Shown: one piece after another, positions 4,750-22,814 of the stretch
Position numbering within the stretch: the stretch's first letter is position 1
Layout of the letters: the number at the start of each line of letters is the position of its first letter
Assembly (NCBI RefSeq): GCF_000170855.1
Contig: NZ_ABCQ01000035.1
Coordinates: forward strand, 1-32,000
DNA: 32,000 nucleotides
Direction of reading: 5' to 3'
From: Moritella sp. PE36
GTDB lineage: Bacteria > Pseudomonadota > Gammaproteobacteria > Enterobacterales > Moritellaceae
Translations under genes and position numbers: made by a program
The notes under the pieces: model-generated
Told to the model about the DNA's origin: nothing
Seen by the model: only the letters and a program-made list of their open reading frames with translations
The model's database searches: none

Positions 4750-4944
4750 CATAGTAACGAGTAGACCATCATGCAATAGGGGGCGGGGTTGGGTGATCGT
4801 TATGTGATCATCGCTGATCATTCGTTGATCGATATTGTGGTTTAAATGGCATTGTCATATCGCAACAGCTCATACAAACACTATTGCGAGCGCAATTTTG
4901 CTGCGTAGCTCCACTTACCGATTAATTATCGCCCCCAATACTTC

Positions 4945-5998: not shown

Positions 5999-6415
5999 AT
6001 GAAGTCGATAATATTAAGTCTATTACTAATGAGTTTTTCATCTATTTCATTAGCATATGATGGTGCTCCCACCAAACAAGTTGAGATGTTTTTTAAAGAT
6101 CAATCAAATAGGAAGGTAAGTGAATCTATAGATAATCTTTATTCAAATAATCCTGCTATGCAGCAAAAAGTTCAAGCATTAACTTTTTTAAAGCAGCAGC
6201 TTGCATCGGTATCAGTCTTATATGGAAATCTTATTGGCAATGAAAATATATCCAAGGAAGAGCTATCTCCATCATTAGTCAGAATCGTACAAGTTGCCAA
6301 ATATGATATTCATCCAGTTGTTTGGGAATTTTATTTCTACAAACCTAAAGACAAGTGGATCGTAAGTCAGGCAATGTTTGTTGACCAATTCCAAGTAGTG
6401 GGTTCTAAAAAGTAA
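5999..6415 (+). CDS. secreted hypothetical protein
   Basis: MKSIILSLLLMSFSSISLA/YDG looks like a Sec signal peptide. ATG at 5999 is preceded by GGAAG. No family recognised. Confidence 0.5.
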   Translation: MKSIILSLLLMSFSSISLAYDGAPTKQVEMFFKDQSNRKVSESIDNLYSNNPAMQQKVQALTFLKQQLASVSVLYGNLIGNENISKEELSPSLVRIVQVAKYDIHPVVWEFYFYKPKDKWIVSQAMFVDQFQVVGSKK

Positions 6416-6507
6416 ATGTAATAAATAGCAGTAACGGACTTGTCAAACCGCCACTTAAACTACTGCGTAATAACAAGCCGCTGCGCTAGCCGCGAATCTA
6501 AAATTCA

Positions 6508-6529
6508 CCATACTTTCTGTAATGCAAAC
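6508..6529 (+). repeat. 22-bp repeat core CCATACTTTCTGTAATGCAAAC (copy 1)
   Basis: Matches 16560-16581 at 21/22 positions in the same orientation. Weaker similarity continues about 40 nt downstream to a CTAAGCC motif (6551-6558). Confidence 0.7.
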
Positions 6530-6663
6530 TTTGCCATTTAAAGCTCAATATCTAAGCCACTGTTGTCCAGATCTAAGTCCTGTACCTCTATCATCCTACA
6601 ATCATCATGACCATTATCAGCAATAGGAGGTAATGATGGTTATAAAGAACTCACATCACGGAC

Positions 6664-6908
6664 ATGGAGCTAAGAAGCCATTTAGACTCGAAGATTATCA
6701 AGTCAGGGGCGCTAAGCTTAGGGCTGGATAATAACTTATATGGTACGCATTCGATGAGACGAACAAAAGCTACGCTGATATATGCTCGGACTAAAAATAT
6801 ACGTGCAGTGCAACTGCTTTTAGGGCATACAAAAGTAGATAACACAATTCGATACTTGGCATTGAGATTGAAGATGCCCTGAAGTTATCTGAGGAAACGG
6901 ATAGTTAA
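6664..6908 (+). pseudogene. 3' fragment of a tyrosine recombinase/integrase, frameshifted
   Basis: ...GTHSMRRTKATLIYARTKNIRAVQLLLGHTKVDNTIRYL carries the catalytic HxxR...GH...Y C-terminal box. Only about 70 C-terminal residues remain. The usual ending (RYLGIEIEDALKLSEETDS*) is recovered only by adding 1 nt near 6859. Confidence 0.7.
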
Positions 6909-6992
6909 TTTTAGTTCTGGTCTTCAACCACTATAGTTGAAGACCAAACATACCCCAAAGTGGCTTAGAGTCGTAACTCAGACTCGATATTC

Positions 6993-8186
6993 TCACCTTC
7001 TATTTCTTTTTTTAACCTTTTTTTTGACTTTTTTAGGCACTTTTGAAAACTCTTTATGGAAAGGCTGTTCTGTAGCAACAGGAATGGCTTTCCCTATGCT
7101 TTTTTCAATACTATTTAATAACGTTATATCATTTTCTACAGCAAATGAAATGGCTATTCCACTTTTCCCGGCACGAGCAGTTCGTCCTATACGGTGTATG
7201 TAGTTTCTTGGATCTTCAGGAAGGTTATAGTTAATGACTAAAGTAATATTATCAACATCAATGCCACGAGCAGCAACATCAGTTGCAACTAATACGCTTA
7301 AATTAGAATCTTTAAAGTTTTGTAACGCTTCTTCCCTAACTGCTTGTGTTTTACCACTGTGAAGGCTAGCGGCAGTGATTGATGCTTCTTCTAGAGCTTC
7401 AACAATGATGTCAGCGCCAGGCTTTGTTTTACAAAAAATGAGCACTTTTTTATAGTGAGATTTTTCAAGGATATTAAGTAGCAAAGGCACTTTATTCGAT
7501 TTTTCAAGATGGTATACACTTTGATTAATCCGCTCGATAGTAACCGTTTCCGCCGTAATTTGAATTTTTGTCGGGTCCGTTAATATTGCGTCTGCAAGTA
7601 TCTCGATTTCAGCAGGCATAGTGGCTGAAAACAAGAGTGTTTGTCGGTTCTTTGGCAGCTTAGATATGATGCGTTGAACATCCTTAAAGAACCCCATATC
7701 AAGCATTGTATCTGCTTCATCTAACACAAATACTTCTAACGCCTTAAAGTTTATATCGTCGGTTTTAATTAAATCCAATAACCTGCCGGGTGTGGCCACT
7801 AAAATATCAAGTCCAAGTGCGATAGAGTCAACTTGATTTTGTCTTCCTACTCCACCATAAACCACCTTAGTTTTAAGCCCTAAACCATCAGCGTAGTCAT
7901 CAATGTTTTGCATTATTTGCGAGGCAAGCTCTCTCGTGGGCGTTAGTATGAGCGAACGCGTGCTCTTAGCGTTGATATCTATTTTATTTCGCCCAAAATT
8001 ATTGATAATAGGCAATGAAAAGGCCGCAGTTTTTCCTGTTCCCGTTTGCGCTATACCAAGAAGATCATTCCCATTAATAAGAGCTGGGATACATTCTTTT
8101 TGGATTGGTGTGGGCTGTTTATAGCCTTTAAGACTAACGCGGTCAATAATTGACTCTAAAAGTGAAAATTCTTTAAACTCGGACAT
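6993..8186 (-). CDS. ATP-dependent DEAD-box RNA helicase (RhlE-like)
   Basis: Q motif (GYKQPTPIQ), motif I AQTGTGKT, PTRELA, DEAD (VLDEAD), SAT, HRIGRTARAG, and a Lys-rich tail. Start at ATG 8186 (MSEFKEF...) with GAGG upstream. Confidence 0.9.
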   Translation of the reverse strand: MSEFKEFSLLESIIDRVSLKGYKQPTPIQKECIPALINGNDLLGIAQTGTGKTAAFSLPIINNFGRNKIDINAKSTRSLILTPTRELASQIMQNIDDYADGLGLKTKVVYGGVGRQNQVDSIALGLDILVATPGRLLDLIKTDDINFKALEVFVLDEADTMLDMGFFKDVQRIISKLPKNRQTLLFSATMPAEIEILADAILTDPTKIQITAETVTIERINQSVYHLEKSNKVPLLLNILEKSHYKKVLIFCKTKPGADIIVEALEEASITAASLHSGKTQAVREEALQNFKDSNLSVLVATDVAARGIDVDNITLVINYNLPEDPRNYIHRIGRTARAGKSGIAISFAVENDITLLNSIEKSIGKAIPVATEQPFHKEFSKVPKKVKKKVKKRNRR

Positions 8187-8502
8187 GCTGCCTCGGTATT
8201 CTTTAATCAATAGCCTATTATTCTAACAGAATGCTTTAACATATTTAAGACGTATTCAAGGTGACTTTTTCTGACAAATCCTCACAAAAACAGTTCAGTA
8301 ATTAAGTGTTCTGAGCCTTATAGAACAAAGCATGTAGATTGGATTTACGTTCGGCCTTAGGTCAGCCCAGACTGTAATGGTTATGTATTTTATGATTGAG
8401 AATGTTGCTCCTTTTCTCAATGGAGTTAGTGTAACTAAACCAATTGTAATGTTACTTTTGCAGTTGGTATTTACAATTTGTTTTCCAAAATATTATCGAG
8501 TA

Positions 8503-8511
8503 GGGGGGGGG
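8503..8511 (+). repeat. G9 homopolymer in intergenic DNA
   Basis: tagGGGGGGGGGaaatg; same length as the tract that breaks the adhesin frame at 14995-15003. Confidence 0.9.
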
Positions 8512-8525
8512 AAATGAAGTCAGCG

Positions 8526-8583
8526 CTCTAACACGGTTTTGTCCATCAATGGCTTAGGGTGATAGCTCTAAGCCGAAACTGAC
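8526..8583 (-). repeat. GGCTTAG/CTAAGCC hairpin module (inverted copy)
   Basis: CTCTAAC-N18-GGCTTAGGGTGATAGCTCTAAGCC-GAAACTG aligns with the reverse complement of 16618-16670 (CTCTAAC-N15-GGCTTAGCGCTATTGCTCTAAGCC-GAAGTTG). Both contain a 24-nt hairpin of the same geometry. Confidence 0.65.
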
Positions 8584-8849
8584 CCTTTCTGCGTTAAAGA
8601 AGTTACTCACTTATAATATATTCATATCGATTTGTCATATATTTTCTCATGCATTATTTATAAGGTATCCACCTGCACTTAAACGCTTAATAAATTAAAC
8701 TGACAAAACTACCGTTTTATCCAAAAAAACATACGATTTTTCAATTGCACATTTAATTGTGTCCCCCAGTGTTATTTGATAATAGTATTCTCGTTTTGCC
8801 AGTTAATTCAGCTCGGTTTAAAATGAAAAAAGAAATGCTGCCACTATAA

Positions 8850-9861
8850 TAATCATGGATGTAAGGCATACAGAATCGGTAGTAACCTCCCTAAAAACGG
8901 GGGGGACATTCCAGAAATCACGTAACTAACCTCATCATAGAAACGATCAATGACCAAATTAAAAACATCTCTAAAATTGAGCATTATCGCCATCGAAGCT
9001 TGCATGGTGTTATGTTGAACTTGCTGGTTGGTCCGGTTGCGTATTGCCTAAAACCGATCTGATGTTGAGTATTAACAGCATGACATATATCCTTGATCGC
9101 CCCATCATTCGTCCCCAGTGTTGTGCTGAAGTATTTGCATAATGCATAATGCAATATGTACTTTGTTATATCGCATTGCAAATTGCGAATTATACATTTC
9201 AAACTACGATTTTATTGTTTCTTGAGAACACTTCTAAGTTAGCCCATCATCATTCTACATTACCAATCATCGTGCTACCTCTGATAACCGAGATCCTTTA
9301 ACTACATTGAAGTTCATATAGATAGGATATTCTTCTTCATTCGTTGAAACTAATGCTATGAAAAGGGTCTTATTTTCGGAGCCTCGCACTCGCTTCCCAC
9401 CATGACGTTCACTGTCATAATAAACATCATCTACTTGAATGACACCAGATAGTAGTCGCTTGTCATCCCGCTATTTCATGATCTGCATGGTTTTTTGCTT
9501 AATTCTTCAAGCTGAATTGTAAGAGGCACCAATTTGATGTTTAAGTGATAATGCTTATATGCCAATTTAAACTTGAATGCTTAATAAACACTTATAAAAC
9601 AATTCATTACAGGTCATGTTGAATATTTGGACATTGTGTTAGTGATAACAGACGTTTGGTGGTGACTGCGATTACATTGATAAATATTTCTTGATTTTAA
9701 TGAGCAATAGCGATGAGAAGAGCATGCAAGACAGATAAAACCATCAGGCCATTTCCAGTTGAACAGAGCCTCAATACATTGTTCTTCTGAGGCATAATCT
9801 TTGAATAGTTCCAGTAAACTATACCCTTGGTGCTGCTGAGTTTACTTTTTCTCGTAGCCAT
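8850..9861 (-). mobile_element. degraded IS1595-family (ISXO2-like) transposase pseudogene
   Basis: Minus-strand translation across several frames gives MATRKSKLSSTKG.., ELFKDYASEEQCIEALFNWKWPDGFICLACSSHRYCSLKSRNIYQCNRSHHQTSVITNT (zinc-ribbon N-terminus), IGASYNSA.RIKQKTMQI, RDDKRLLSGVIQVDDVYYDSERHGGKRVRGSENKTLFIALVSTNEEEYPIYMNFNVVKGSR, and PPRF.GGYYRF (cf. LPRYLAEFCYRFNRR). Many stops and frameshifts. The lower boundary is approximate. Confidence 0.65.
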
Positions 9862-10169
9862 AATCTTCACAACGTATCACTATAAATATAGTTTTTTTGA
9901 GTTAATAGTGGTTGAGTTAAGTGGGTAACCAGGAAGTCTTATTCATTAAAATTTTCCAGTTGGCGTAAACATTGCTTCTTTTAGAATTGAAGATCGGTTT
10001 TCGTGAAGCTATAAACCGCGCTTTGCCAAAAGGATATCGAGCCATCGGTAATCTCAATCGATTAATTATAGTAATGTATTTTTACCACTAATTCACTAGC
10101 TTTTGTATGATTATTGTAACAATTAACATTTATTTTTTATGCATCTAATCTATAAACATAAAGCTAACC

Positions 10170-13100
10170 ATGCCGAATGATAATAAATTGATTTTAAAGG
10201 GGTTAATAGTGAATTCAATACTAAAGAATTGGCTTTTTGTTCTGCTTTCGTTTGCATTGTTTGGTTGTAATGATCCAAATGGTAGCACAATGAAACGTGT
10301 TATTTATGTCGACGAAAATTCACAAGTTGAATTAACATCAGCTTATGTAGCAACCTCCAATACTGACCATATTGAATGGCGACAAATTAGTGGTAAATCG
10401 ATTGAATTGTCGGATGTTAATAGTTCTACGTTAGTGTTCTTCTCACCAACGACAGAGACTAAATTAACATTGGAGTTTGAGTCTACGGTACTTAGCTCTG
10501 TAGGTAATATGGTTACGGAAATTGTGACAGTGGTGGTGGTTCCTTACATCACAGGATTAGTGATAGATGACCCTCTTATTGGTGCAACAGTTCGCTTATT
10601 ATCATTCGACAGTTCAACAGAACATGCAAGTACAATTACAGATGAAAATGGACGTTACCGCTTTTCCAATACTCTAAATCTAAACAGATATAAGCTAGTG
10701 GTTGATGCTCAGACTGGTTTCATGTCTGATGGCTCTGTGTTTGAAGCCGAAATGAAGGCTGTATGTATTAATAGTACTGAACGTCATGATTGTAACATTA
10801 CACCTATTAGTACCTTTATTGCACACCACCTTGAGCAAACAGCCGATATGGAATCGAAAGAAGAGGCTGTAGTTCAAATAGAGCTGGCATGGAATATAGA
10901 CTTATCTCTAGACCCTTTTGTCCATGAAATACCTGAGATAAATACGGGCAGTACATTTAAGGCGGATGATATTCGCATATTTTTGGATAATGGTCGACAG
11001 ATTTCTACATGGCTAGACAATATGTCTGCTCATGTTACCCAAATTATTGAACAAGAGGAAATTCTCCCAGCAGAACAAGATGATATTAATAGCTGGATTG
11101 ATTTCAAGCGTGAAGCTGGTATCCCACTCATCGCTGGGCCTACAGTTAATAAATCTGTGGGTGATATGGGATATCGACAAGAGGCAACCGCAGGGAATGG
11201 AGGTGCAATAACCTATACTTCATCCGATCACGCGGTAGCTATGGTTGATAGCAGTGGTAATGTAACAGTCTTAGATGCGGGTACTGCAACAATCACAGCG
11301 ATAGAAGCACAAAGTATGAAATACCTAAGCCAAAACGATGCATACACCTTAATCGTAGCACGAGGTGATGGCACTCTATTGAGTGCAGGGACTGACATCA
11401 GTAAAACCACCGATGATGGATCCTTTACTCAAGTAGCTTCTGGCGGCAACGGGGGCGCTATTACCTACGCTTCATCCGATACGGCTGTTGCCACTGTGAA
11501 CGATAGCGGCGTGGTCACGCTTGTTGGCGCGGGCGAAACCACTGTTACTGCCAGCGAAGCACAAACCGCGAGTTACCTGACTCAAAACGACGCATACACC
11601 TTAACCGTAACACGAGGTGATGGTACGCTATTGAGAGCTGGGACTGACATCAGTAAAACCACCGATGATGGATCCTTTACTCAAGCCGCTTCTGGCGGCA
11701 ACGGGGGCGCTATTACCTACGCGTCATCCGATACAGCTGTTGCCACGGTGAACGATATCGGCGTGGTCACGCTGGTTGGCGCGGGTGAAACTACTGTGAC
11801 TGCCAGTGAAGCGCAAACCGTTAATTACCTGACTCAAAGCGATGCGTACACCTTAACCGTAGCTCGCGGTGATGGCACTGGATTAAATGCAGGCGTGGAC
11901 ATGAATAAAACCACCGATGATGCATCCTTTACTCAAGCCGCTTCTGGCGGCAACGGGGGCGCTATTACCTACGCGTCATCCGATATGGCTGTTGCCATGG
12001 TGAACGATACCGGCGTCGTCACGCTGGTTAGCGCGGGTGAAACCTCTATTACTGCCAGCGAAGCGCAAACCGCGAATTACCAGACTCAAAACGACGCATA
12101 TACCTTAACCGTAACACGAGGTGATGGCTCGCTATTGAGTGCAGGGACTGACATCAGTAAAACCACCGATGATGGATCATTTACTCAAGCAGCTTCTGGC
12201 GGCAACGGGGGCGCTATTACCTACGCGTCATCTGATACGGCTGTTGCCACGGTAAACGATACCGGCGTCGTCACGCTGGTTGGCGCGGGCGAAACCACTG
12301 TTACTGCCAGCGAAGCACAAACCGCGAATTACCTGACTCAAAACGATGCATACACCTTAACCGTAGTACGAGGTGATGGCACTGGATTAAATGCAGGCGT
12401 GGACATGAATAAAACCACCGATGATGCATCCTTTACTCAAGCCGCTTCTGGCGGCAACGGGGGCGCTATTACCTACGCTTCATCCGATACGGCTGTTGCC
12501 ACTGTGAACGATAGCGGCGTGGTCACGCTTGTTGGCGCGGGCGAAACCACTGTTACTGCCAGCGAAGCACAAACCGCGAGTTACCTGACTCAAAACGACG
12601 CATATACCTTAACCGTAACACGAGGTGATGGTACGCTATTGAGAGCTGGGACTGACATCAGTAAAACCACCGATGATGGATCCTTTACTCAAGCCGCTTC
12701 TGGCGGCAACGGGGGCGCTATTACCTACGCGTCATCCGATATGGCTGTTGCCATGGTGAACGATACCGGCGTCGTCACGCTGGTTAGCGCGGGTGAAACC
12801 TCTATTACTGCCAGCGAAGCGCAAACCGCGAATTACCAGACTCAAAACGACGCATATACCTTAACCGTAACACGAGGTGATGGCTCGCTATTGAGTGCAG
12901 GGACTGACATCAGTAAAACCACCGATGATGGATCCTTTACTCAAGCAGCTTCTGGCGGCAACGGGGGCGCTATTACCTACGCGTCATCTGATACGGCTGT
13001 TGCCACGGTGAACGATATCGGCGTCGTCACGCTGGTTGGCGCGGGCGAAACCACTGTTACTGCCAGCGAAGCACAAACCGCGAATTACCAGACTCAACAC

Positions 13101-15032
13101 GACGCATATACCTTAACCGTAACACGAGGTGATGGCTCGCTATTGAGTGCAGGGACTGACATCAGTAAAACCACCGATGATGCATCCTTTACTCAAGCCG
13201 CTTCTGGCGGCAACGGGGGCGCTGTTACCTACGCTTCATCCGATACGGCTGTTGCCACGGTAAACGATACCGGCGTGGTCACGCTGGTTGGCGCGGGTGA
13301 AACTACTGTGACTGCCAGTGAAGCGCAAACCGTTAATTACCTGACTCAAAACGATGCATACACCTTAATCGTAGCACGCGGTGATGGCACTCTATTGAGT
13401 GCAGGGACTGACATCAGTAAAACCACCGATGATGCATCCTTTACTCAAGTAGCTTCTGGCGGCAACGGGGGCGCTATTACCTACGCTTCATCTGATACGG
13501 CTGTCGCCACGGTGAACGATATCGGCGTGGTCACGCTGGTTGGCGCGGGCGAAACCACTGTTACTGCCAGTGAAGCGCAAACCGTTAATTACCTGACTCA
13601 AAACGATGCGTACACCTTAACCGTAGCTCGCGGTGATGGCACTGGATTAAATGCAGGCGTGGACATGAATAAAACCACCGATGATGGATCCTTTACTCAA
13701 GCAGCTTCTGGCGGTAACGGGGGCGCTATTACCTACGCGTCATCTGATATGGCTGTTGCCACTGTGAACGATATCGGCGTCGTCACGCTGGTTGGCGCGG
13801 GCGAAACCACTGTTACTGCCAGCGAAGCACAAACCGCGAGTTACCTGACTCAACACGACGCATATACCTTAACCGTAGTACGAGGTGATGGCTCGCTATT
13901 GAGTGCAGGGACTGACATCAGTAAAACCACCGATGATGGATCCTTTACTCAAGCCGCTTCTGGCGGCAACGGGGGCGCTATTACCTACGCTTCATCCGAT
14001 ACGGCTGTTGCCACGGTAAACGATAGCGGCGTCGTCACGCTGGTTGGCGCGGGTGAAACTACTGTGACTGCCAGTGAAGCGCAAACCGTTAATTACCTGA
14101 CTCAAAACGATGCATACACCTTAATCGTAGCACGCGGTGATGGCACTCTATTGAGTGCAGGGACTGACATCAGTAAAACCACCGATGATGCATCCTTTAC
14201 TCAAGTAGCTTCTGGCGGTAACGGGGGCGCTATTACCTACGCGTCATCTGATACGGCTGTCGCCACGGTGAACGATATCGGCGTTGTCACGCTGGTTAGC
14301 GCGGGTGAAACCACTGTTACTGCCAGCGAAGCACAAACCGCGAACTACCTGACTCAAAACGACGCATACACCTTGATAGTGACTCAAGCATCACAAAGAG
14401 TGGAAAGCATTAACTCGAATTTATTTGCTTTTGCCGCACTGCATTCCGACGGATCAGTGACCACCTGGGGGAGTAGCTCCAATGGTGGCGATAGCACGAG
14501 TGTGAGCGACAAGCTTGATGGCAGCAAGCCAGTCGTCAAGGTTGACTCGAATCGCTTTGCTTTTGCCGCACTGCATTCCGACGGTTCAGTGACAACCTGG
14601 GGTGGTGGCTCTTTCGGTGGCGACAGCTCGAGCGTGAGTGACAAGCTTGATGGCAGCAAGCAAGTCGTCAAGGTTGACTCGAATTTCTTTGCTTTTGCCG
14701 CACTATATTCCGACGGTTCAGTGATAACCTGGGGGAATGGCTCTCACGGTGGCGATAGCAGCAGTGTGAGCGACAAGCTTGATGGCAGCAAGCCAGTCGT
14801 CAAAGTTGACTCTACTACCTTTGCTTTTGCCGCACTGCATTCCGACGGTTCAGTGACAACCTGGGGGAATGGCGCTTACGGTGGCGATAGTACGAGTGTG
14901 AGTGACAAGCTTGATGGCAGCAAGCCAGTCGTTAAGGTTGACTCGACTGAGGGCGGTTTTGCCGCACTGTACTCCGACGGTTCAGTGACCACCTGGGGGG
15001 GGGCTCTTACGGTGGCGATAGCACGAGTGTGA
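10170..15032 (+). CDS. giant repeat surface lipoprotein/adhesin, upstream reading frame (1,620 aa as read)
   Basis: Signal and lipobox-like ...WLFVLLSFALFGC/NDP. An alternative GTG start at 10209 has AAAGGGG upstream. Carboxypeptidase-regulatory-like segment (GLVIDDPLIGATVRLL...TDENGRYRF). 13 Ig-like (Big_2-type) units, then WG/GGD 44-aa units. The frame ends at TGA 15030-15032, just after the G9 run. Confidence 0.8.
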   Translation: MPNDNKLILKGLIVNSILKNWLFVLLSFALFGCNDPNGSTMKRVIYVDENSQVELTSAYVATSNTDHIEWRQISGKSIELSDVNSSTLVFFSPTTETKLTLEFESTVLSSVGNMVTEIVTVVVVPYITGLVIDDPLIGATVRLLSFDSSTEHASTITDENGRYRFSNTLNLNRYKLVVDAQTGFMSDGSVFEAEMKAVCINSTERHDCNITPISTFIAHHLEQTADMESKEEAVVQIELAWNIDLSLDPFVHEIPEINTGSTFKADDIRIFLDNGRQISTWLDNMSAHVTQIIEQEEILPAEQDDINSWIDFKREAGIPLIAGPTVNKSVGDMGYRQEATAGNGGAITYTSSDHAVAMVDSSGNVTVLDAGTATITAIEAQSMKYLSQNDAYTLIVARGDGTLLSAGTDISKTTDDGSFTQVASGGNGGAITYASSDTAVATVNDSGVVTLVGAGETTVTASEAQTASYLTQNDAYTLTVTRGDGTLLRAGTDISKTTDDGSFTQAASGGNGGAITYASSDTAVATVNDIGVVTLVGAGETTVTASEAQTVNYLTQSDAYTLTVARGDGTGLNAGVDMNKTTDDASFTQAASGGNGGAITYASSDMAVAMVNDTGVVTLVSAGETSITASEAQTANYQTQNDAYTLTVTRGDGSLLSAGTDISKTTDDGSFTQAASGGNGGAITYASSDTAVATVNDTGVVTLVGAGETTVTASEAQTANYLTQNDAYTLTVVRGDGTGLNAGVDMNKTTDDASFTQAASGGNGGAITYASSDTAVATVNDSGVVTLVGAGETTVTASEAQTASYLTQNDAYTLTVTRGDGTLLRAGTDISKTTDDGSFTQAASGGNGGAITYASSDMAVAMVNDTGVVTLVSAGETSITASEAQTANYQTQNDAYTLTVTRGDGSLLSAGTDISKTTDDGSFTQAASGGNGGAITYASSDTAVATVNDIGVVTLVGAGETTVTASEAQTANYQTQHDAYTLTVTRGDGSLLSAGTDISKTTDDASFTQAASGGNGGAVTYASSDTAVATVNDTGVVTLVGAGETTVTASEAQTVNYLTQNDAYTLIVARGDGTLLSAGTDISKTTDDASFTQVASGGNGGAITYASSDTAVATVNDIGVVTLVGAGETTVTASEAQTVNYLTQNDAYTLTVARGDGTGLNAGVDMNKTTDDGSFTQAASGGNGGAITYASSDMAVATVNDIGVVTLVGAGETTVTASEAQTASYLTQHDAYTLTVVRGDGSLLSAGTDISKTTDDGSFTQAASGGNGGAITYASSDTAVATVNDSGVVTLVGAGETTVTASEAQTVNYLTQNDAYTLIVARGDGTLLSAGTDISKTTDDASFTQVASGGNGGAITYASSDTAVATVNDIGVVTLVSAGETTVTASEAQTANYLTQNDAYTLIVTQASQRVESINSNLFAFAALHSDGSVTTWGSSSNGGDSTSVSDKLDGSKPVVKVDSNRFAFAALHSDGSVTTWGGGSFGGDSSSVSDKLDGSKQVVKVDSNFFAFAALYSDGSVITWGNGSHGGDSSSVSDKLDGSKPVVKVDSTTFAFAALHSDGSVTTWGNGAYGGDSTSVSDKLDGSKPVVKVDSTEGGFAALYSDGSVTTWGGALTVAIARV
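11115..14388 (+). repeat. 13 tandem in-frame 252-bp (84-aa) units: Big_2-like Ig domain plus linker
   Basis: Unit: GDG(T/S)LLSAGTDISKTTDD(G/A)SFTQ(A/V)ASGGNGGAITYASSDTAVATVND.GVVTLVGAGETTVTASEAQT..YLTQNDAYTLTV.R. GGTGATGG phase markers at 11364, 11616 and 11868 give a period of exactly 252 bp. Array boundaries are approximate. Confidence 0.9.
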
Positions 15033-15715
15033 GCGACAAGCTTGATGGTAGCAATCCAGTCGTTAAGGTTGACTCGACTGACAGAGGTTTTGCCGCACTG
15101 CATTCCGACGGTTCAGTGACCACCTGGGGGGATGGCTCTGACGGTGGTGATAGCAGCAGTGTGAGCGACATGCTTGATGGCAGCAAGCCTGTCGTCAAGC
15201 TTGACTCGACTGGTTATGCTTTTGCCGCACTGCACTCTGACGGTTCAGTGACCACCTGGGGGTTTAACTCTGGCGGTGGTGATAGCAGCAGTGTGAGCGA
15301 CATGCTTGATGGCAGCAAGCCAGTCGTCAAGGTTGACTCGACTCGCTATGCTTTTGCCGCACTGCACTCTGACGGTTCAGTGACCACCTGGGGGGATGAA
15401 AGGTACGGTGGCGATAGCAGCAGTGTGAGCGACAAGCTTGATGGCAGCAAGCCAGTCGTCAAAGTTGACTCTACTAGCTATGCTTTTGCCGCACTGCATT
15501 CCGACGGTTCAGTGACAACCTGGGGGCATAGTTCTTACGGTGGCGATAGCAGCAGTGTGAGCGACAAGCTTGATGGCAGTAAGTCAGTTGTTAAGGTTGA
15601 CTCGACTGGCTATGCTTTTGCCGCACTGCACTCCGACGGTTCAGTGACCACCTGGGGGTATGGAACTTTCGGTGGCGATAGCACTAGCGTGAACGCAAAA
15701 TTAACAGGCACGTTA
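14415..15715 (+). repeat. 10 tandem 132-bp (44-aa) WG/GGD units (RCC1-like/beta-propeller-like by inference)
   Basis: Unit: S..(F/Y)AFAALHSDGSVTTWG....GGDS(S/T)SVSDKLDGSKPVVKVD. TTTGCTTTTGCC at 14424 and 14556 gives a period of 132 bp. The array runs straight across the frame break at 14995-15003. Confidence 0.85.
14995..15003 (+). repeat. G9 homopolymer at the frameshift point of the adhesin gene
   Basis: ACC ACC TGG GGG GGG GCT CTT ACG... Paralogous units read TGG GGG nnn GGC TCT TAC GGT GGC GAT. G10 would restore ...TTWGGGSYGGDSTSVSDKL... in frame. Confidence 0.95.
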
Positions 15716-16009
15716 AGCGATTACTATGATTACCACGACACTGATAGAGACGGCATACCAAATATCGATGAATTAGGTACATGTAGTGTGCCATATTCCA
15801 TAGCATCAGAAGACTTAGGTCACCCCCCTTGCCAAAGCGCTGGGGAGCCAGATTCGGATGGAGATGGCGTTTGGGATAACGTTGAAGGCACGAATGGCTC
15901 GAATCCATTGAAAGCATCGTATCAGGACTCAAATAATGATGCCAACGGAGATGGTTCACCAGATAGTTGGATATTGCCTGATGATGGCCTGAATGTACCA
16001 ATTCTATAG
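15029..16009 (+). CDS. downstream reading frame of the same adhesin gene (326 aa from the track; frame is open from the G9 run)
   Basis: Continues the 44-aa units in register, then a Ca-binding tail with thrombospondin-type-3-like DxDxDG motifs (DTDRDGIPNIDE, DSDGDGVWDNVE, DANGDGSPD). The track 'start' is an internal GTG with no independent SD. Confidence 0.75.
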   Translation: MSDKLDGSNPVVKVDSTDRGFAALHSDGSVTTWGDGSDGGDSSSVSDMLDGSKPVVKLDSTGYAFAALHSDGSVTTWGFNSGGGDSSSVSDMLDGSKPVVKVDSTRYAFAALHSDGSVTTWGDERYGGDSSSVSDKLDGSKPVVKVDSTSYAFAALHSDGSVTTWGHSSYGGDSSSVSDKLDGSKSVVKVDSTGYAFAALHSDGSVTTWGYGTFGGDSTSVNAKLTGTLSDYYDYHDTDRDGIPNIDELGTCSVPYSIASEDLGHPPCQSAGEPDSDGDGVWDNVEGTNGSNPLKASYQDSNNDANGDGSPDSWILPDDGLNVPIL

Positions 16010-16031
16010 AGTGACAATAATTAATCCGATG

Positions 16032-16079
16032 TTAGAGTCAAAGATACCTATCAGCCTGACTCTAATATCGGTGTTTTTT
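16032..16079 (+). terminator. possible terminator hairpin after the adhesin gene
   Basis: TTAGAGTCA (16032-16040) / TGACTCTAA (16057-16065): 9-bp stem with a 16-nt loop; T6 at 16074-16079 but 8 nt from the stem. Non-canonical. Confidence 0.3.
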
Positions 16080-16427
16080 AAGACAGTTGGCACTCATTTA
16101 GCTAATTTTTATACCGCTTCTTTCATCAGTTTATCTGAAACTGAATTTACTGCTGACATATCCTTTAAAACTATCGCTGCGCTACATTATGTAAGCAATT
16201 ACGGGAGCTATTTTGAGATAGCTAGAGATATTGACATGGATAGCATGAATAGTAGGGGGGTGACTTGTCGGAGAGCGTTTCCACACAGTACTCAGGAAAA
16301 ATAAACGTTTCATTTGAGGAGTTACAATCTATCGAAACCATTGAACCTATAATGCAGAACTTAATTGATGGCGACCAGTATCAATCGTGTTAGATATTGA
16401 TATGGCAACAATAGTCGAAACTGTTGC

Positions 16428-16553
16428 ATAATAAAAGCATTTAAGAGGGATTTAAAACGCGTGGCATTCGCGATTTGAATCCACTTTTGTGTTTACGGTG
16501 GTCAAATTCAGTTTTGGGGTAGGCATTTTCCACCCCTTAATGCGGCGTTGGTA
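16428..16553 (+). other. attC-like integron recombination site, VCR-like, ~126 bp
   Basis: ATAATAAAAGCATTTAAGAGGGATTTAAAACGCGTGGCATTCGCGATTTGAATCCAC...CCACCCCTTAATGCGGCGTTGGTAA. The 5' arm (GCATTTAAGAGGG) pairs imperfectly with the 3' arm (CCCCTTAATGC). Length and both ends resemble the Vibrio cholerae repeat as I recall it (..AACAAACGCCTCAAGAGGGACTGTCAACGCGTGGCGTTTCC...CCCCTTAGGCGGGCGTTA). Confidence 0.6.
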
Positions 16554-16559
16554 ATTTGC

Positions 16560-16581
16560 CCATACTTTCTGTAATGCGAAC
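16560..16581 (+). repeat. 22-bp repeat core CCATACTTTCTGTAATGCGAAC (copy 2)
   Basis: 21/22 identical to 6508-6529. It starts 7 nt after the GTTGGTA end of the attC-like site. Confidence 0.7.
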
Positions 16582-16601
16582 CGTGTGCTTTGAAGTTTAT
16601 A

Positions 16602-16670
16602 CTCTAAGCCATTTTTTCCAACTTCGGCTTAGAGCAATAGCGCTAAGCCGTTTCTGCCCATCACGTTAGA
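16602..16670 (+). repeat. GGCTTAG/CTAAGCC hairpin module (three interlocking arms)
   Basis: CTCTAAGCC (16602-16610), GGCTTAGAG (16626-16634) and CGCTAAGCC (16641-16649): the middle arm can pair with either flank. Followed by ...CACGTTAGAG. Homologous in inverse orientation to 8526-8583. Confidence 0.65.
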
Positions 16671-16972
16671 GTGATAACTCATTCACAGGCTGTTAATGCT
16701 ACTTTTCGATACCCGAATTTATGCGAGGTGAAGAGTGTTGCTAAGTGTCAGCTAAGCTCCGTTTCTCCCAAAACCGAGCTTTGCGCAAGACTTGCTGGTT
16801 TTTGAACTGCCGCTATTTCAGGTTCGCTTTCGGTGAACGTGTACTTTAGAAGCTATCTCGCTTTCGCCTCAAAATCGACTTAGAAATCGATTTTGGAAGA
16901 GCCTACATTAATGATTGCTTACCACCCCCTTCGGCAGCCCATTGGTCGCTAACGGACCCGAAGCGGACACTG

Positions 16973-18181
16973 TTATTTTTTAACTAGTGAGGGGACTATT
17001 TTTATGAGATCTGTTCCTCGGATTTGGATGCCGTCTTCAGTCACCGCTGTAAGCTCGACAGTGTATTCTCCTTGTTCAATCATAAATTTCGAGGTTTCAA
17101 TGCCGCAAACCAAATCCATAAAACCATCACGGTTGACATCTCTTTCTTGGCACATATAATTCCTGCCAGCAAGCCTTACGTTAGCTCCCGACAGCCATAT
17201 AGTTTCCTCATCGATTGTTAGCGCATCAAAGGTTTGGGAACTCAGAATAGCGAGGTGGGTCACCCCAGCCGAATTGAGGTTGATCGTATTTTTCCTATTG
17301 CCGGGCTTCAGATCTATCGTCACTTTAATTGCTGTGGGAATTTGTAACGCGATCCCCCACGGTGTATCTAATCCGCTGGTAACGAGATCTTCTATTAAGG
17401 TACCATCAAAATTTGCCCTTTGAATCTTGTTATCGTTATTGTTGGTCCAGTAAATTTTTCTGTCCTTAAGGTCGAGTGCAATTCCAATCGCTCCACTGAA
17501 CTGAAACTCCGGATTAGCATCTGTACCGTCTAACTTAGCACTCCAAATCCAGTTACCTTGTGCCTAATACATCCTTCCGCGCGGTACATCCAGAGCGATA
17601 CCTTGCGGAAAACTTTGCCCTGAAACAAGGTCTTCTAACTCTGAACCGTCCAAATTGGCACGCTGTATCTTATCCGTAAGCGTGTCCGTCCAGTAAATTT
17701 TTCCAGCATTAATATTGATGGCAAGTCCACGCGGGTCTCCCAAGCCAGTAACTATATCTTCAATGTTCGAGCCATCTAGATTTGATCGCTGAATTTTGTT
17801 CGTGACTCCATCAGTCCAGTAGATCTTTCCAGCCATAAGATTCAAAGCAATACCCGAAGGACCCGGTAGTCCATGGACCAGGCTGTTCTCGACATTACTC
17901 CCATCAAGGTTCGCGCGACGGATACTTCCGATGTCGGTCCAGTATACCTTGCCTCCTGCGATGTCCAGTGCAATATAACGAGGATTTAGGCTTGGTGGAG
18001 TGACTAGAAGTTTGACGTTACTGCCGTCCAAATTGGCTCGTAGAACTTTCGCTACCGCATTTCCTGAATTATTAGAATCAGAGAAATATATCTTTCCAGT
18101 TGAAGCCGAAAATGTAAATCCGCTTATTAAAGTGCTAACCAAAATAAGTGTCGGAAGTATACCTAACGCTTTCATTTTCAT
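16973..18181 (-). pseudogene. secreted six-bladed YWTD (LDL-receptor class B-like) beta-propeller protein, interrupted by one in-frame TAG
   Basis: Signal peptide MKMKALGILPTLILVSTLISGFTFSA. Blade motifs YFSD, YWTD, YWTD, YWTD, Y*AQ, YWTN, each followed by (I/K)(Q/R)RANLDGS. ORFs 17564..18181 and 16973..17323 are in the same frame, and 17324-17563 is open in that frame. The only stop is TAG at 17564-17566, at the Trp position of blade 5. Confidence 0.8.
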
Positions 18182-18753
18182 GGTGAAACCCTCTAGTGCA
18201 TGTGTGTTTTACTTATACACTACAAGTAAAGTGTATAAGTAAAATCGGCCTCGGATTTACATTCAGTCCAATATGCTTTTTCAGCTTGCTATGGACTGAG
18301 TATCTATCAAATGATAGTTCATACACACATTTATATTATGGTTATCAGCAAGGTTTAATAGTTCCGGAAATAATTAGAAAAGATAGGCATCTAAAAAGCA
18401 TGAGTTAAGTCGTCGGGCGAAATGTGACGCTTATTAAAGATAACTGTGGGGACTCTCGTGTTATTCGCTCAGATCAAGATTACGAAATATTGATACTGCC
18501 AAATAGTCTTTGTTTCAAGCCTAGATGTAACTTAGTTAATTGAAAATAAACAATTTAATTTTTATGTGTCTATTTACACGGGTTACACGGGTCCGTATAA
18601 ATAGGGTTCTTGTTTACGTTCTGATTTTATTTGATAGAGACCCATTATTTTTCCATATCCATTTGTAATTAATGATAAATTTGATAGTGTTGATGGTAAT
18701 TAAATTGAAACGGAATTCCGTGTAATTAAACTTTATACCTCTGGGGGTAATTC

Positions 18754-19173
18754 GTGACGCAAATTGAACATTTAAATATCACTGTTCCAAATATAGATGA
18801 AGCGATAAAGTTCATTCAGATAGTCGCTCCGGATTTCAAGGTAAGAAAGGATGAAAAACCACTTTCCAGTTATCGTTGGGCTCATATAGGTAATGATGAA
18901 TATTATTTTGCTCTTCAAGAACCACATATAGGCTCAGAAGCAGATAAGCCACGAAAAACATATAAGAATTATGGTGTTAACCATATTGCTCTTGTCGTTG
19001 ATGATATTTCAAAAATTGAAAATGAGTTAGTAAAAGCTGGATATAAACGGAGTATTGAAACTCCTACAGAGAAATACCGTAAGAGATTGTATTTCTTTGA
19101 TAATTTCGGCTTCGAGTGGGAATTGGTTGAATACACCTCCGAGAATCCTAGCGAAAAATATTTATATGAATAA
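18754..19173 (+). CDS. VOC family (glyoxalase/bleomycin-resistance/dioxygenase fold) protein; cassette-like
   Basis: 139 aa. IEHLNITVPNIDEAIKF... and GVNHIALVVDDISKIENELVKAGY...YFFDNFGFEWELVEY are typical VOC half-domains. GTG start. An attC-like site begins 3 nt after the stop. Confidence 0.75.
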   Translation: MTQIEHLNITVPNIDEAIKFIQIVAPDFKVRKDEKPLSSYRWAHIGNDEYYFALQEPHIGSEADKPRKTYKNYGVNHIALVVDDISKIENELVKAGYKRSIETPTEKYRKRLYFFDNFGFEWELVEYTSENPSEKYLYE

Positions 19174-19175
19174 AA

Positions 19176-19227
19176 ATATAGCAAGCGCCTGTAATCTGAC
19201 TTCCGTCAGTTGAGGCGGACGTTATAA
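19176..19227 (+). other. short attC-like site (~52 bp)
   Basis: ATATAGCAAGCGCCTGTAATCTGAC-TTCC-GTCAGTTGAGGCGGACGTTATAA. The arms pair imperfectly (ATAgCaagCGCCTgtaatCTGAC vs the reverse complement ATAaCgtcCGCCTcaaCTGAC). It ends in the canonical core GTTATAA (19221-19227); the inverse core is ATATAGC versus an ideal TTATAAC. Confidence 0.5.
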
Positions 19228-19239
19228 CTTTCGCATTTA

Positions 19240-19539
19240 ATGGCGTTTACGAAATGGATATTCAATCAATTCACAAAGCGTCATGTCATTGTTGCTTCAA
19301 TACCACTTGATGGTATAAAAGTTATTAAAGGCTCTGAATTGTTGAGCTTGTATCAATTTAATACGAAAACAGCGAAACACTATTTTTGTTCTAAATGTGG
19401 CATTTACACTCATCATCAAAGGCGTTCAAACCCACAACAATATGGTTTTAATGTCGCTTGCTTAGAAGGTGTTAATCCCTTAACGCTAGAAAATGTTCCA
19501 ACATATGACGGTGTTAACCACCCAGTAGATCGTATGTAA
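19240..19539 (+). CDS. GFA (glutathione-dependent formaldehyde-activating/CENP-V-like) family protein, apparently N-terminally truncated
   Basis: LSLYQFNTKTAKHYFCSKCGIYTHH...YGFNVACLEGVNP...PTYDGVNHP matches the C-terminal two-thirds of GFA-family proteins. The N-terminal Cys-rich zinc-ligand region (CxC...CxCxxC) is absent. An in-frame TAA at 19225-19227 inside the upstream attC-like core prevents extension. Confidence 0.65.
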   Translation: MAFTKWIFNQFTKRHVIVASIPLDGIKVIKGSELLSLYQFNTKTAKHYFCSKCGIYTHHQRRSNPQQYGFNVACLEGVNPLTLENVPTYDGVNHPVDRM

Positions 19540-19542
19540 AAG

Positions 19543-19644
19543 TTATAACCAGGCGTTTAAACGGCACAAAACAGTTGACTCTTTCCCGCTTCGCTACACC
19601 GTTATAGCCAACAATTATCTGCCGCTTAAACGGATGCGTTACTT
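19543..19644 (+). other. attC-like site (~102 bp)
   Basis: Inverse core TTATAAC (19543-19549), 4 nt after the GFA stop. The 5' arm AACCAGGCGTTTAAACGGCA pairs with the 3' arm TGCCGCTTAAACGGATGCGTT. Ends GTTACTT (19638-19644). Confidence 0.6.
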
Positions 19645-19791
19645 AGCTCTTGGAACGTTACGTCGAATAAAACTCGGTCTATTCAGGGATTTAATGACAT
19701 TACCGCAGGTGTAGAACGATTTAACTAACTTAACAGGGCATAAATACGCTAAAATAGCCGGCTATTATCTTATTTTGAGCTCTATATATTA

Positions 19792-21066
19792 ATGACCACT
19801 GTAACAGCACCTGCAAACTTTACTGAACTTGGCCTTATTTCACCTTTATTAACTCGATTGACTGAGATGGAATATCTGCAGCCAACGCCAATTCAAGCAC
19901 AAGCTATCCCAAGTGTATTAGCGGGACGTGACTTAATTGCAGGGGCTAATACCGGCTCGGGTAAAACAGCTGCATTTGCACTGCCATTATTGCAGCAACT
20001 ACATACTGAAAAACAATTGAGTGACACCAGCAGCAAAGGTAACTATGTTACTGGACTAATTTTGGTGCCTACCCGTGAACTCGCTATACAAGTTGCTGAC
20101 AGCATTAAATCTTACGCAGCACATTTAAACGGCGCGATTAAAACGCTTGCTGTTTTTGGTGGTGTATCTGCGAATACGCAAATGCTCGCATTACGCGGCG
20201 GCACAGATATTTTGGTTGCAACGCCTGGTCGATTACTCGATTTGATTTCAAGCAATGCGATTAAGCTCGATAGAGTTAAAACCTTAGTGCTAGATGAAGC
20301 CGATCGCATGTTAAGCCTCGGTTTTACTGAAGAGCTATCTGCGCTATTGGCATTAACGCCAAAGCAAAAACAAATTTTATTATTTTCAGCAACTTTTCCT
20401 GAGCAAGTTCAAGCTTTAACTCAAGAATTGCTAAATGACCCTGTTGAAATTCAATTGCAAAGTGCAGATGCCAGTACCTTAGTACAGCGCGTATTTACTG
20501 TTACTAAAGGCGAGAAAACAGCCTTGTTAGCGCATTTGATCAAACGACATGAATGGCGACAAGTGCTTATTTTTGTTAATTCTAAACACAGCTGTAATCA
20601 CTTAGCGGACAAACTTGCTAAACGTGGCATTACCTCGCAAGTGTTTCATGGCGATAAAGGTCAGAGCGCTCGTATTCGTACACTTGACGGCTTTAAAGCT
20701 GGCCAGGTTCACGTACTAATCGCAACCGATATTGCTGCACGTGGTATCGATATTGAAAAACTACCTGTCGTGATCAACTTTGACTTACCAAGAAGCCCAT
20801 CAGACTACATGCACCGTATTGGTCGAAGTGGCCGTGCTGGTGAAGTTGGCTTGGCGTTATCGCTTATCGATCATGAAGATTATCATCATTTCAGCACCAT
20901 CGAAAAGAAGAACAAGATCCGACTTGAGCGTGAGCAAGAAGTAGGGTTTGAAGTCGATGACGCTGTCGAAGCATATATACCGATGGCGCCACCTGAAGGC
21001 AGCGGTAAGAAAAAGCGTAAAAATAAAGCGCCTGTGAATGCTGATATCTGGTTGAATAAATCTTGA
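19792..21066 (+). CDS. ATP-dependent DEAD-box RNA helicase (RhlE-like)
   Basis: 424 aa. YLQPTPIQ, ANTGSGKT, PTRELA, VLDEAD, SAT, ARGIDI, HRIGRSGRAG, and a Lys-rich tail. Confidence 0.9.
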   Translation: MTTVTAPANFTELGLISPLLTRLTEMEYLQPTPIQAQAIPSVLAGRDLIAGANTGSGKTAAFALPLLQQLHTEKQLSDTSSKGNYVTGLILVPTRELAIQVADSIKSYAAHLNGAIKTLAVFGGVSANTQMLALRGGTDILVATPGRLLDLISSNAIKLDRVKTLVLDEADRMLSLGFTEELSALLALTPKQKQILLFSATFPEQVQALTQELLNDPVEIQLQSADASTLVQRVFTVTKGEKTALLAHLIKRHEWRQVLIFVNSKHSCNHLADKLAKRGITSQVFHGDKGQSARIRTLDGFKAGQVHVLIATDIAARGIDIEKLPVVINFDLPRSPSDYMHRIGRSGRAGEVGLALSLIDHEDYHHFSTIEKKNKIRLEREQEVGFEVDDAVEAYIPMAPPEGSGKKKRKNKAPVNADIWLNKS

Positions 21067-21177
21067 TAGCAATCAGAATAAATAGATAATCACTCTTTCT
21101 GGTTTAAACCTGAATAAAAGATAAATCTACCCTTATAAAAAGTGGGTGTTGAGAAGTTCGACCTCACTATTTACTAT

Positions 21178-21212
21178 AAAAAAACCACCGAGCATAGCAG
21201 GGTGGTTTTTTT
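21178..21212. terminator. bidirectional rho-independent terminator (helicase / glgA convergent)
   Basis: AAAAAAA-CCACC-GAGCATAGCAG-GGTGG-TTTTTTT: an A7 run on one side and a T7 run on the other, between the 21066 (+) and 21246 (-) gene ends. Confidence 0.75.
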
Positions 21213-21245
21213 ATATAATCAGCCTAGTCGTGTTTATATAACCGT

Positions 21246-22814
21246 CTAAGCAGGTGTATATAATAAGTCTAGATACTGTTTGGTGCTTTCGTGCCAGCTA
21301 AAACGGGCTGATTTTGCATTGTCTGCAATTTTGGCCCATGTCTTCGGTTTTTTCGCATGCAGTTTAATTGCATCGTTAAAAGCGGTAATCAAATTATCAC
21401 TTTGTTCTGGTAACGATGAACCGTTAAAGCTAAAGCCATTCTCTAAATGCTGAACCGTATCTTTTAAACCGCCAACTGCATGCACTAAACAAGGTTGCCC
21501 ATCACGCATTGCTAGCATTTGGCTAATACCGCAAGGTTCAAATGAACTTGGCATTAAGAATAGATCGCCATGTAGATATATTTGATCGGATAACGCTTGG
21601 CCATAACCGTTCAAGAATAAGAAATTGTCATGACTTGCCATTAACTGCATGAATTCAAATTCGATTTGCGTATCACCAGAACCAAGAATAATCATCCGAC
21701 CATTCACTCTCGCAAGATCATCAAGTAATACCGCCAGTACCGTTTTACCCTGATAAGGCTGACGTAATAATAGTGCTTTTTGATCGGTTAAACGGCCAAT
21801 GCTGGTTACTAAGAAATCAGTAAATGGTGCCTGGCTATGCCAGTTATTGATCTGTTCATTAGCTAGGTAATGTACTGTTTTCAATTGCGCCGATTGTGCT
21901 AACCAACGTTTTACTTGTTGTTGTGCAGGTACCAAAAAATTACTCAGTGCTGGTGTTTTAGTGCGTTTATTTGATACTGACTCTGTGTATTCACAGCCAT
22001 TTAAAATACCGACTAAGCGACCTTGCTGTTTTGCTGCTGCTAAGTCTTTCTCTAGACCTTCGCCACCAAAGAAACCGTTATGCGCATCGCTGGCATGTAA
22101 TACTTCGTCTGCATATGTTGGTGATACTACATGGACTTTGTTACAAAGATTAATACCAGCACGCATCGGGTTATAACAATGAGTATAACGCGGGTCGGCA
22201 ATAACACTCTGATCAAAGTTAAGGGTAGGGAACCAGTGGCGTAAACTTGATTCATCGTCTGCAATCGGGCGGATACCTTGCAAGGCAATGTTATGCACAG
22301 TGTAGACTGAGTGAATGTTAGCAAGTTCTTTATATTGCGGCGCGTATTGGTTTAGTACCGCGATTGTTGCACTGTGCCAGTCGTGTAAATGTAATACATC
22401 AGGCCGGGTTAATTCTGACTCGATAAGAAGTTGGCATACGGCAAGGTTGAATAAAGCGTATTTGGTTGCGTCAGTGGCAAAAGGGCGATTACCTTCATCG
22501 TGACTATAAACATGACCACCTTGACCAAATAGCGGATGTTGTACTACAAATTGGCGGACTTTATTTGGCGTTTCAGGAAAGAACAGTTCGAACAAAGTAA
22601 CTGTTTCTGTTTGGCCGGCAAACTCAACATTGACTCTGGCCAGTTGACGAGACTCAAACTTTGTCGCGTACTGACCATAATCAGGGATCACAACATCAAC
22701 ACTTACATCATGGTGAGGTAAGGCTTTTGGTAAATCCCGAACGACGTCAGCAACGCCACCAACTTTAGCACCTGGTATCGCATCATTTTCGGCTGCTATC
22801 ATTAAAACGTGCAT
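21246..22814 (-). CDS. glgA: glycogen synthase (GT5, ADP-glucose type)
   Basis: MHVLMIAAENDAIPGAKVGGVADVV carries the KVGG(L/V)ADVV signature. C-terminal ...PSSFEPCGISQMLAMRDGQPCLVHAVGGLKDTV. Start at ATG 22814 with AAGGA upstream; the track start 22898 adds 28 low-complexity codons. Confidence 0.9.
   Translation of the reverse strand: MHVLMIAAENDAIPGAKVGGVADVVRDLPKALPHHDVSVDVVIPDYGQYATKFESRQLARVNVEFAGQTETVTLFELFFPETPNKVRQFVVQHPLFGQGGHVYSHDEGNRPFATDATKYALFNLAVCQLLIESELTRPDVLHLHDWHSATIAVLNQYAPQYKELANIHSVYTVHNIALQGIRPIADDESSLRHWFPTLNFDQSVIADPRYTHCYNPMRAGINLCNKVHVVSPTYADEVLHASDAHNGFFGGEGLEKDLAAAKQQGRLVGILNGCEYTESVSNKRTKTPALSNFLVPAQQQVKRWLAQSAQLKTVHYLANEQINNWHSQAPFTDFLVTSIGRLTDQKALLLRQPYQGKTVLAVLLDDLARVNGRMIILGSGDTQIEFEFMQLMASHDNFLFLNGYGQALSDQIYLHGDLFLMPSSFEPCGISQMLAMRDGQPCLVHAVGGLKDTVQHLENGFSFNGSSLPEQSDNLITAFNDAIKLHAKKPKTWAKIADNAKSARFSWHESTKQYLDLLYTPA

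Follow-up and report, generated by a model that had tools for sequence, protein, structure and literature searches.

A nine-guanine tract at the frame break of a giant RCC1-like lipoprotein gene in Moritella sp. PE36 may mark a revertible slippage frameshift

Does a run of nine guanines (G9) that breaks the frame of a very large surface-protein gene act as a genetic switch, or is it an accident of the sequence in which it lies? This question is raised by a gene of Moritella sp. PE36, a piezophile isolated from a depth of 3,584 m whose genome is available as a contig-level draft only (PMC8477399, Table 1). The gene lies in the first 32,000 nucleotides (nt) of contig NZ_ABCQ01000035.1, hereafter the window. 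Judging from its sequence, it appears to be specific to the Moritella sp. PE36 lineage and to encode a giant surface lipoprotein with an N-terminal anchor, a stalk, a head of RCC1-like blades and an Asp-rich tail. The original prediction took the tract for a slipped-strand ON/OFF switch of this putative adhesin. We favor another reading, to which we give a probability of roughly 0.55: the frameshift would be real and recent, the result of slippage at a hypermutable tract that arose incidentally, and open to reversion. The elements of the break, with lengths in amino acids (aa) and open reading frames abbreviated ORF, are the following:

14995–15003, forward strand: the G9 tract, in the W-G-G-G codons of unit 5 of the RCC1-like array; the intact reading is TGG GGG GGG GGC (G10).
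10170–15032, forward strand: the first ORF as assembled with G9, a 1,620-aa truncated lipoprotein.
15030–15032, forward strand: the premature TGA, reached in the shifted frame 27 nt past the G run.
14951–16009, forward strand: the open −1 frame, containing the rest of unit 5, units 6–10 and the tail, with no further stops or indels.

The coordinates and translation of the tract and of the stop behind it agree with the original prediction, and so does its claim that the next frame continues the repeat in register: the −1 frame carries the 44-aa repeat onward with full unit consensus as far as the Asp-rich tail. Addition of one G merged the two frames, again as predicted, into a single 1,946-aa ORF at 10170–16009. 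The resulting junction, TTWGGGSYGGDSTSVSDKL, reads T-W-G-G-G-S-Y-G-G-D-S-T-S-V-S-D-K-L, which conforms to the unit consensus, and the junction peptide of the full-length product is TTWGGGSYGGDSTSVSDK. The spacing of the TGG codons in successive units is 132 nt everywhere in the ten units except across the tract, where it is 131 nt. Because the 131-nt spacing occurs there alone, the missing base can be pinned to the G tract.

When the tract length was varied in silico, G7 and G10 gave products of 1,945 and 1,946 aa, respectively, and G8, G9, G11 and G12 gave products of 1,616–1,621 aa. Contingency loci are recognized by a homopolymer of about 8 nt or more, within an ORF or promoter, whose length toggles expression or the reading frame; the PE36 gene has a run of nine, and in silico its length does toggle the frame. 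However, the tract corresponds to codons 1609–1612 of 1,946, 83% into the ORF, and not to the usual position near the 5′ end or in the promoter. In the G9 product, anchor and stalk are retained along with 4.4 blades, and the loss of distal units and of the calcium-binding-type tail that had been proposed for it is borne out: 5.6 blades (about 60% of unit 5 and all of units 6–10) and the TSP3-like tail are missing. An incomplete propeller with 4.4 blades would be unlikely to fold.

Homologues from other genera indicate which state of the gene is the older one. The closest, WP_299266532.1 from Psychrosphaera (776 aa), is a single intact ORF with 55% identity over the C-terminal 554 aa, and the homologue in a Bermanella metagenome-assembled genome (MAG) from sea ice (contig positions 8618–10405) is likewise intact in a single ORF. 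In both, an LLFGC lipobox is followed by one or two Big_2 domains and about ten RCC1-like units, and the tail, with 63–65% identity to that of PE36 (63% for Psychrosphaera), preserves both Cys residues. Since these homologues are intact and end in the same tail, the unbroken gene is, on this comparison of sequences, the ancestral design. The long tract is a different matter. The Psychrosphaera gene writes its W-G-G-G-S-F motif as TGGGGGGGAGGT (G7) and the Bermanella homologue has no run beyond G6; with runs of at most G7 in the homologues, the long tract is therefore not conserved in the family. A further homologue, in a Motiliproteus MAG (JBALTG010000055.1, 638–4392), has an in-frame TAA at 3988–3990, where the unit consensus has a Glu codon, and its lipobox-bearing N-terminal part is split across three frames. 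This copy is either a decaying gene or the product of a poor MAG consensus. As a separate observation, the Psychrosphaera contig NZ_CANMSK010000006.1 carries two paralogues of the family (1–846 and about 7000–9300), about 6 kb apart, one of which has an in-frame G7 at the W-G-G-G motif (8504–8510).

We then compared the window with the closest Moritella DNA. The Moritella MAG GCA_002733565.1 is 98.4% identical to it over 386–11421 and encodes an identical N-terminal 377 aa, and its contig ends inside the Big_2 array, short of the tract. The nine indels that separate PE36 from the MAG all fall between genes, with none in coding regions over 8.7 kb. An assembled contig from the Logan collection, SRR9429784_491, the one contig that look-ups of neighboring genes yielded, corresponds to 15550–22059 of the window and is 100% identical over 6,510 bp, including A7 and T7 runs; it stops 547 nt short of the tract, and its source run may be a re-sequencing or an environmental sample. 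A literature search for SRR9429784 returned no matches. With no coding indels in the one comparison and no differences over 6.5 kb in the other, frameshift errors are evidently not widespread in the PE36 assembly. When the window was turned into a k=31 de Bruijn graph, the end of the Logan contig was recovered exactly, and a 203-nt unitig (14838–15040) was predicted around the tract; a look-up of the 64-aa product of this unitig found no record, a result that is uninformative. Protein searches with 181-aa and 554-aa queries across the break gave nothing closer than the 55% identical Psychrosphaera protein and hence no near-identical fragment; judged by match lengths, this search seems to favor proteins near the query length. 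Scans of Joint Genome Institute (JGI) metagenomes gave no matches to a flanked DNA pattern with a variable gap and no relatives with the tail protein, and a scan of genome contigs with the tail found, among the matches listed, tails of other genera only.

The same comparison bears on the stability of homopolymers. Between 8216 and 11421, PE36 and the MAG differ by only 8–9 substitutions. Within the shared DNA, three runs of PE36 nevertheless read differently in the MAG: G9 from 8503 as G8, G7 from 8899 as G7NN, and T7 at 9892 as T8. The lengths of four further A/T runs of 7–8 are the same in both. Thus G tracts that neighbor the gene differ between these strains. Either the length of long G runs evolves in this lineage at a pace that hardly any other character exceeds, or such runs are difficult to call in the two data sets alike. 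These differences support the hypermutability of this class of tract and are silent on selection.

Two of these runs, G9 at 8503–8511 and G7 at 8899–8905, had been missed by the original prediction; outside the gene, 0.009 G9 runs and 0.2 G7 runs are expected if bases are independent and identically distributed. They lie 400 nt apart in the stretch 8211–10169, which has no genes, and the G9 run lies about 300 nt upstream of the start of a DEAD-box helicase gene on the opposite strand.

How surprising is a long G run in the adhesin gene itself? The expectation of ~0.03 occurrences in 64 kb of both strands that had been put forward, on the ground that the DNA is AT-rich, overstates the case: the repeat region has a G+C content (GC) of 52–54%, with 27% G, and the mean of the window is about 42%. 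By position, GC is 50–54% in the repeat part (11000–16000 of the window), 35–44% in the flanks and 36% at the gene's own 5′ end; the raised value in the repeat part probably reflects its Gly/Ala/Thr/Ser/Asp-rich composition. Furthermore, TGGGGG is present in nine of the ten units, and four or five of these continue with nnn-GGC or nnn-GGA, nnn being a hypervariable codon. With TGGGGG already in place, only this codon must become GGG for a G10 run to form. We modeled this by shuffling synonymous codons within the reconstructed gene, which kept the protein sequence and the gene's own codon pool. Runs of at least ten G appeared at a rate of 5.0% when the whole gene was shuffled and of 4.1% when only the RCC1 part was. 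The tract is therefore mildly, not wildly, unexpected. Nor is it dictated by the peptide, since W-G-G-G-S is encoded in unit 2 by TGG GGT GGT GGC for its first four residues.

From the frame arithmetic, the intact homologues and the instability of neighboring G tracts between strains, we infer the following course of events. The W-G-G-G motif of unit 5 would happen to use GGG codons, giving a run of ten. Slipped-strand mispairing would then have removed one G in the sequenced clone, shifting the frame onto a stop nine codons further on. The 1,620-aa protein that results would have 4.4 blades but lack the tail; its anchor and stalk would be intact, and its head most likely non-functional. The lesion would be young, because 326 downstream codons are still open with full unit consensus, and it would be revertible, a G9/G10 run being intrinsically hypermutable. 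Populations should then carry both ON (G7, G10) and OFF (G8, G9, G11) alleles. The tract itself would be an incidental by-product of the repeat motif and not a switch maintained by selection.

Several considerations weigh against this reading. The tract's own GGG codons are the only ones in the RCC1 part beyond the conserved W-GGG, and this rarity, together with the 4–5% shuffle rate, leaves some room for selection on the tract. The G9 could also stem from the loss of an interrupting base in a G7-N-G2 sequence and not from slippage. The surface location and adhesin role that give the break its interest are suggested by the domain architecture. Finally, no second copy of the tract having been found, there is an appreciable minority chance that a true G10 was written as G9 in the consensus, in which case PE36 has an intact 1,946-aa ORF and the break is confined to the 2007 draft. 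Consensus errors are commonest at a break of this kind, one base in a homopolymer of 9–10 nt within a repeat array, the downstream frame shows no decay over its 326 codons, PE36 is represented by a contig-level draft, and neither annotation pipeline produced a separate C-terminal protein in the forms that we looked up. In these respects (a one-base deficit, an intact remainder in the next frame and a contig-level assembly) the gene resembles the homopolymer frameshift pseudogenes of draft genomes; unlike them, it shows no further decay, and the adjoining sequence is exact against independent data. An assembly that is clean where it can be checked, over the 6,510 bp of the Logan contig and in the coding regions shared with the MAG, argues against an error, and a genuine slip at such a tract is a priori at least as likely as a miscall. 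The PE36 reads, moreover, were presumably Sanger shotgun reads, and Sanger reads resolve runs of 9–10 G much better than pyrosequencing or nanopore. For these reasons we regard a consensus error as unlikely, though well worth keeping in view.

That selection keeps the tract so that the head domain is switched ON and OFF, as in an evolved contingency locus, seems to us about as doubtful as a consensus error. Such switching might help cells to escape phages or grazers, or to alternate between a particle-attached and a free-living state. Poly-G/C contingency loci are well known from Neisseria, Haemophilus, Campylobacter and Bordetella, with pilC, opc, lgtA and the poly-G genes of C. jejuni as examples, and phase variation typically affects large surface proteins. 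Like these loci, the PE36 gene has a run of at least nine G inside the ORF of a surface protein, one-base changes of which toggle full-length translation, and neighboring G tracts differ between close strains. The choice of GGG GGG in a gene that otherwise encodes Gly by GGT or GGC, the absence of a tract from unit 2, a shuffle probability of about 0.04–0.05, and the excess of a second G9 and a G7 over expectation, both of which differ or are ambiguous in the near-identical MAG, all argue in the same direction. Unlike the known loci, most of which switch near the 5′ end or in the promoter, the PE36 tract lies so far into the ORF that the OFF state still makes a 170-kDa protein, and the tract is explicable as an accident of the W-G-G-G motif, one hypervariable codon changed to GGG being enough to create it. 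Among the homologues, the run at this motif reaches G7 in Psychrosphaera and is otherwise absent, and the Motiliproteus copy, if it is truly decaying, indicates that family members are at times simply lost. The organisms differ as well: the known loci belong to host-restricted pathogens, whereas PE36 is a deep-sea piezophile that lives freely or on particles. Neither length polymorphism nor switching is documented for this tract, no second copy was found in the searched collections, and the searched literature holds no report of phase variation by simple sequence repeats in Moritella; the PE36 papers mention neither the gene, nor pseudogenes, nor phase variation. The ON/OFF switch of the original prediction is thus not supported: its tract lies deep in the ORF, is not conserved in the homologues and is within reach of chance. 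A narrower version, in which a selected switch toggles only the distal, ligand-binding head (blades 5–10 and the tail) while anchor and stalk are still made, so that OFF is a swapped head and not a null, and in which this is one of several poly-G loci, is less probable still. If it were true, two G9 tracts and one G7 within 7 kb would diversify Moritella on sinking particles.

Recoding of a stable G9, by −1 ribosomal frameshifting on G_GGG_GGG or by slippage of RNA polymerase, would give a fixed ratio of the 1,620-aa and 1,946-aa products. The second ORF does lie in the −1 frame, (TG)G GGG GGG is an X_XXY_YYZ heptamer in the zero frame, both tRNAs would re-pair perfectly, and the shifted product is exactly W-G-G-G-S-Y. 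Against this, the RNA 3′ of the tract is among the most weakly folded of the corresponding segments in the ten units, with a minimum free energy over 57 nt of −12.0 kcal/mol compared with −9.7 to −20.7 kcal/mol; for unit 5 the values are −12.0, −23.3 and −36.8 kcal/mol over 57, 87 and 127 nt. Comparison of folding energies with those of the other nine units thus revealed no site-specific stimulatory structure 3′ of the tract. The known cases of productive transcriptional slippage use A or T runs, and the homologues use one frame. In E. coli, GGN heptamers shift less well than AAN or UUN (PMC4066793). We consider recoding very improbable. Translational coupling at the GTGA overlap (GTG at 15029, TGA at 15030–15032) was also considered and rejected: the overlap is incidental, AGT GTG AGC being present in every unit, and the product would lack a signal peptide.

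The truncated product stands in both public annotations of PE36. The 1,620-aa ORF is identical to EDM66020.1 (PE36_10518), deposited under the label 'calcium-binding outer membrane-like protein'. The RefSeq entry WP_157517801.1 starts at the GTG at codon 14, giving 1,607 aa, and is otherwise the same as EDM66020.1. A separate C-terminal ORF was sought in seven candidate versions, among them the 152-aa fragment from the Logan contig, and none was present in the protein collection. Exact look-ups of the 1,620-aa and 1,607-aa proteins likewise gave no record in the exact-product search, and the 397-aa helicase product gave no match there.

With one G restored, the organization of the whole protein can be read, and its features in the window are as follows:

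10257–10268, forward strand: lipobox L-F-G-C (aa 30–33), following a hydrophobic h-region; read by eye.
10548–10712, forward strand: CarboxypepD_reg-like beta-sandwich (aa 127–181), 28.4 bits, under the Pfam cut-off of 32.3.
11331–14374, forward strand: array of 252-nt units (12.1 copies, 89% matches) encoding 84-aa Big_2 Ig-like stalk domains.
14418–15737, forward strand: ten RCC1-like units of 132 nt (44 aa), broken in unit 5.
15701–16009, forward strand: C-terminal tail with three Asp-rich TSP3-like loops and two conserved Cys.
15737–15772, 15851–15886 and 15932–15967, forward strand: the Asp-rich TSP3-like loops.

By eye, the leader fits the lipoprotein pattern [LVI][ASTVIF][GAS]C after an N-terminal hydrophobic segment, and the lipobox is kept in homologues as LLFGC or VAGC. 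A region of about 300 aa separates the leader from the Big_2 array, which forms a stalk of about 13 Ig-like domains. The RCC1-like array, for which Tandem Repeats Finder gave bounds of 14426–15692 with 87% matches, scored 115.9 bits with RCC1_2 (PF13540) over six stretches, well above the Pfam cut-off of 22; PF25390 (WD40_RLD) reached 136.9, below its cut-off of 150. One Asp-rich loop resembles TSP3_bac weakly (19 bits, cut-off 25). The RTX nonapeptide family PF00353 was matched neither by the N-terminal 483 aa nor by the C-terminal 554 aa, and no C-terminal signal for type I secretion (T1SS) was recognized. For the C-terminal 554 aa of the reconstructed protein, an AlphaFold2 model built on an alignment of 14 sequences has a predicted local distance difference test score (pLDDT) above 90 for residues 20–450 and shows ten equivalent modules, each of three strands and a short helix; the tail is of low confidence. 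The top matches of the model in the PDB are UVR8, the RCC1-like domains (RLDs) of HERC2, and RCC1, with template modeling (TM) scores of only 0.33/0.45 and root-mean-square deviations of 8–9 Å. In the model, these low TM scores fit RCC1-type blades in a ten-unit, not a seven-unit, arrangement.

The protein can thus be set beside several known groups. It shares its plan with Big_2 and RCC1-like surface proteins of other bacteria (WP_299266532.1, the Bermanella MAG and a Pseudomonadales MAG), which combine a lipobox, Big_2 domains, about ten 44-aa RCC1_2 units and a Cys-containing tail; it differs from them in having about 13 Big_2 domains instead of one or two, in being frame-broken, and in an additional N-terminal region of 330 aa with the CarboxypepD_reg-like domain. 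Like the giant RTX/T1SS adhesins LapA, SiiE and MpIBP, it is very large and has a tandem Ig-like stalk and a distal region of calcium-binding type, but it has neither a PF00353 match nor a recognized T1SS signal, and carries an N-terminal lipoprotein signal instead. With eukaryotic RLDs (RCC1, UVR8, HERC2) it shares the blade motif (RCC1_2), and they provide the best structural matches of the model; unlike their seven blades of about 51 aa, it has ten of 44 aa.

The surroundings of the gene contain some further features. No secretion or regulatory partner was recognized among the neighboring genes of the window. On the reverse strand, 1.5 kb downstream, 17564–18181 encodes a 205-aa protein with three low-density lipoprotein (LDL)-receptor class B (YWTD) repeats, another fragment of beta-propeller type; no link between this protein and the adhesin gene was found. 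Upstream, about 2 kb (8211–10169) contain no ORF of at least 100 aa. In that stretch the MAG annotation (MAG positions 9305–9505) records a 66-aa Zn_ribbon_IS1595 fragment, which suggests that a decayed insertion sequence adjoins the adhesin promoter; the window's own 57-aa ORF there has no Pfam match. Relative to PE36, the MAG carries two small additions immediately before the adhesin ATG, a repeated TAACAAT at about 10116 and an 11-nt insertion (CTAACACAACA) at about 10163, and both indels likely fall in the promoter or 5′ untranslated region of the gene. The divergence between PE36 and the MAG is mosaic over 2698–11421: about 50 of 83 mismatches lie in the helicase gene (7023–7941), and another cluster lies at 4438–4738. 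This pattern suggests recombination or a recently shared adhesin segment.

The PE36 tract adds one more case to a familiar class of features, and what it means for the organism depends on which reading holds. If G9 is a consensus error, EDM66020.1 and WP_157517801.1 are 326 residues short and the gene needs re-annotation. If G9 is real and switches, homopolymer phase variation would reach beyond host-restricted pathogens to a piezophilic marine heterotroph, and the locus, through a single amplicon and alleles locked ON or OFF, would make attachment to sinking particles readily accessible to genetic study. Whichever reading of the tract holds, the reconstructed 1,946-aa protein shows the full plan of a little-studied family of bacterial surface proteins.

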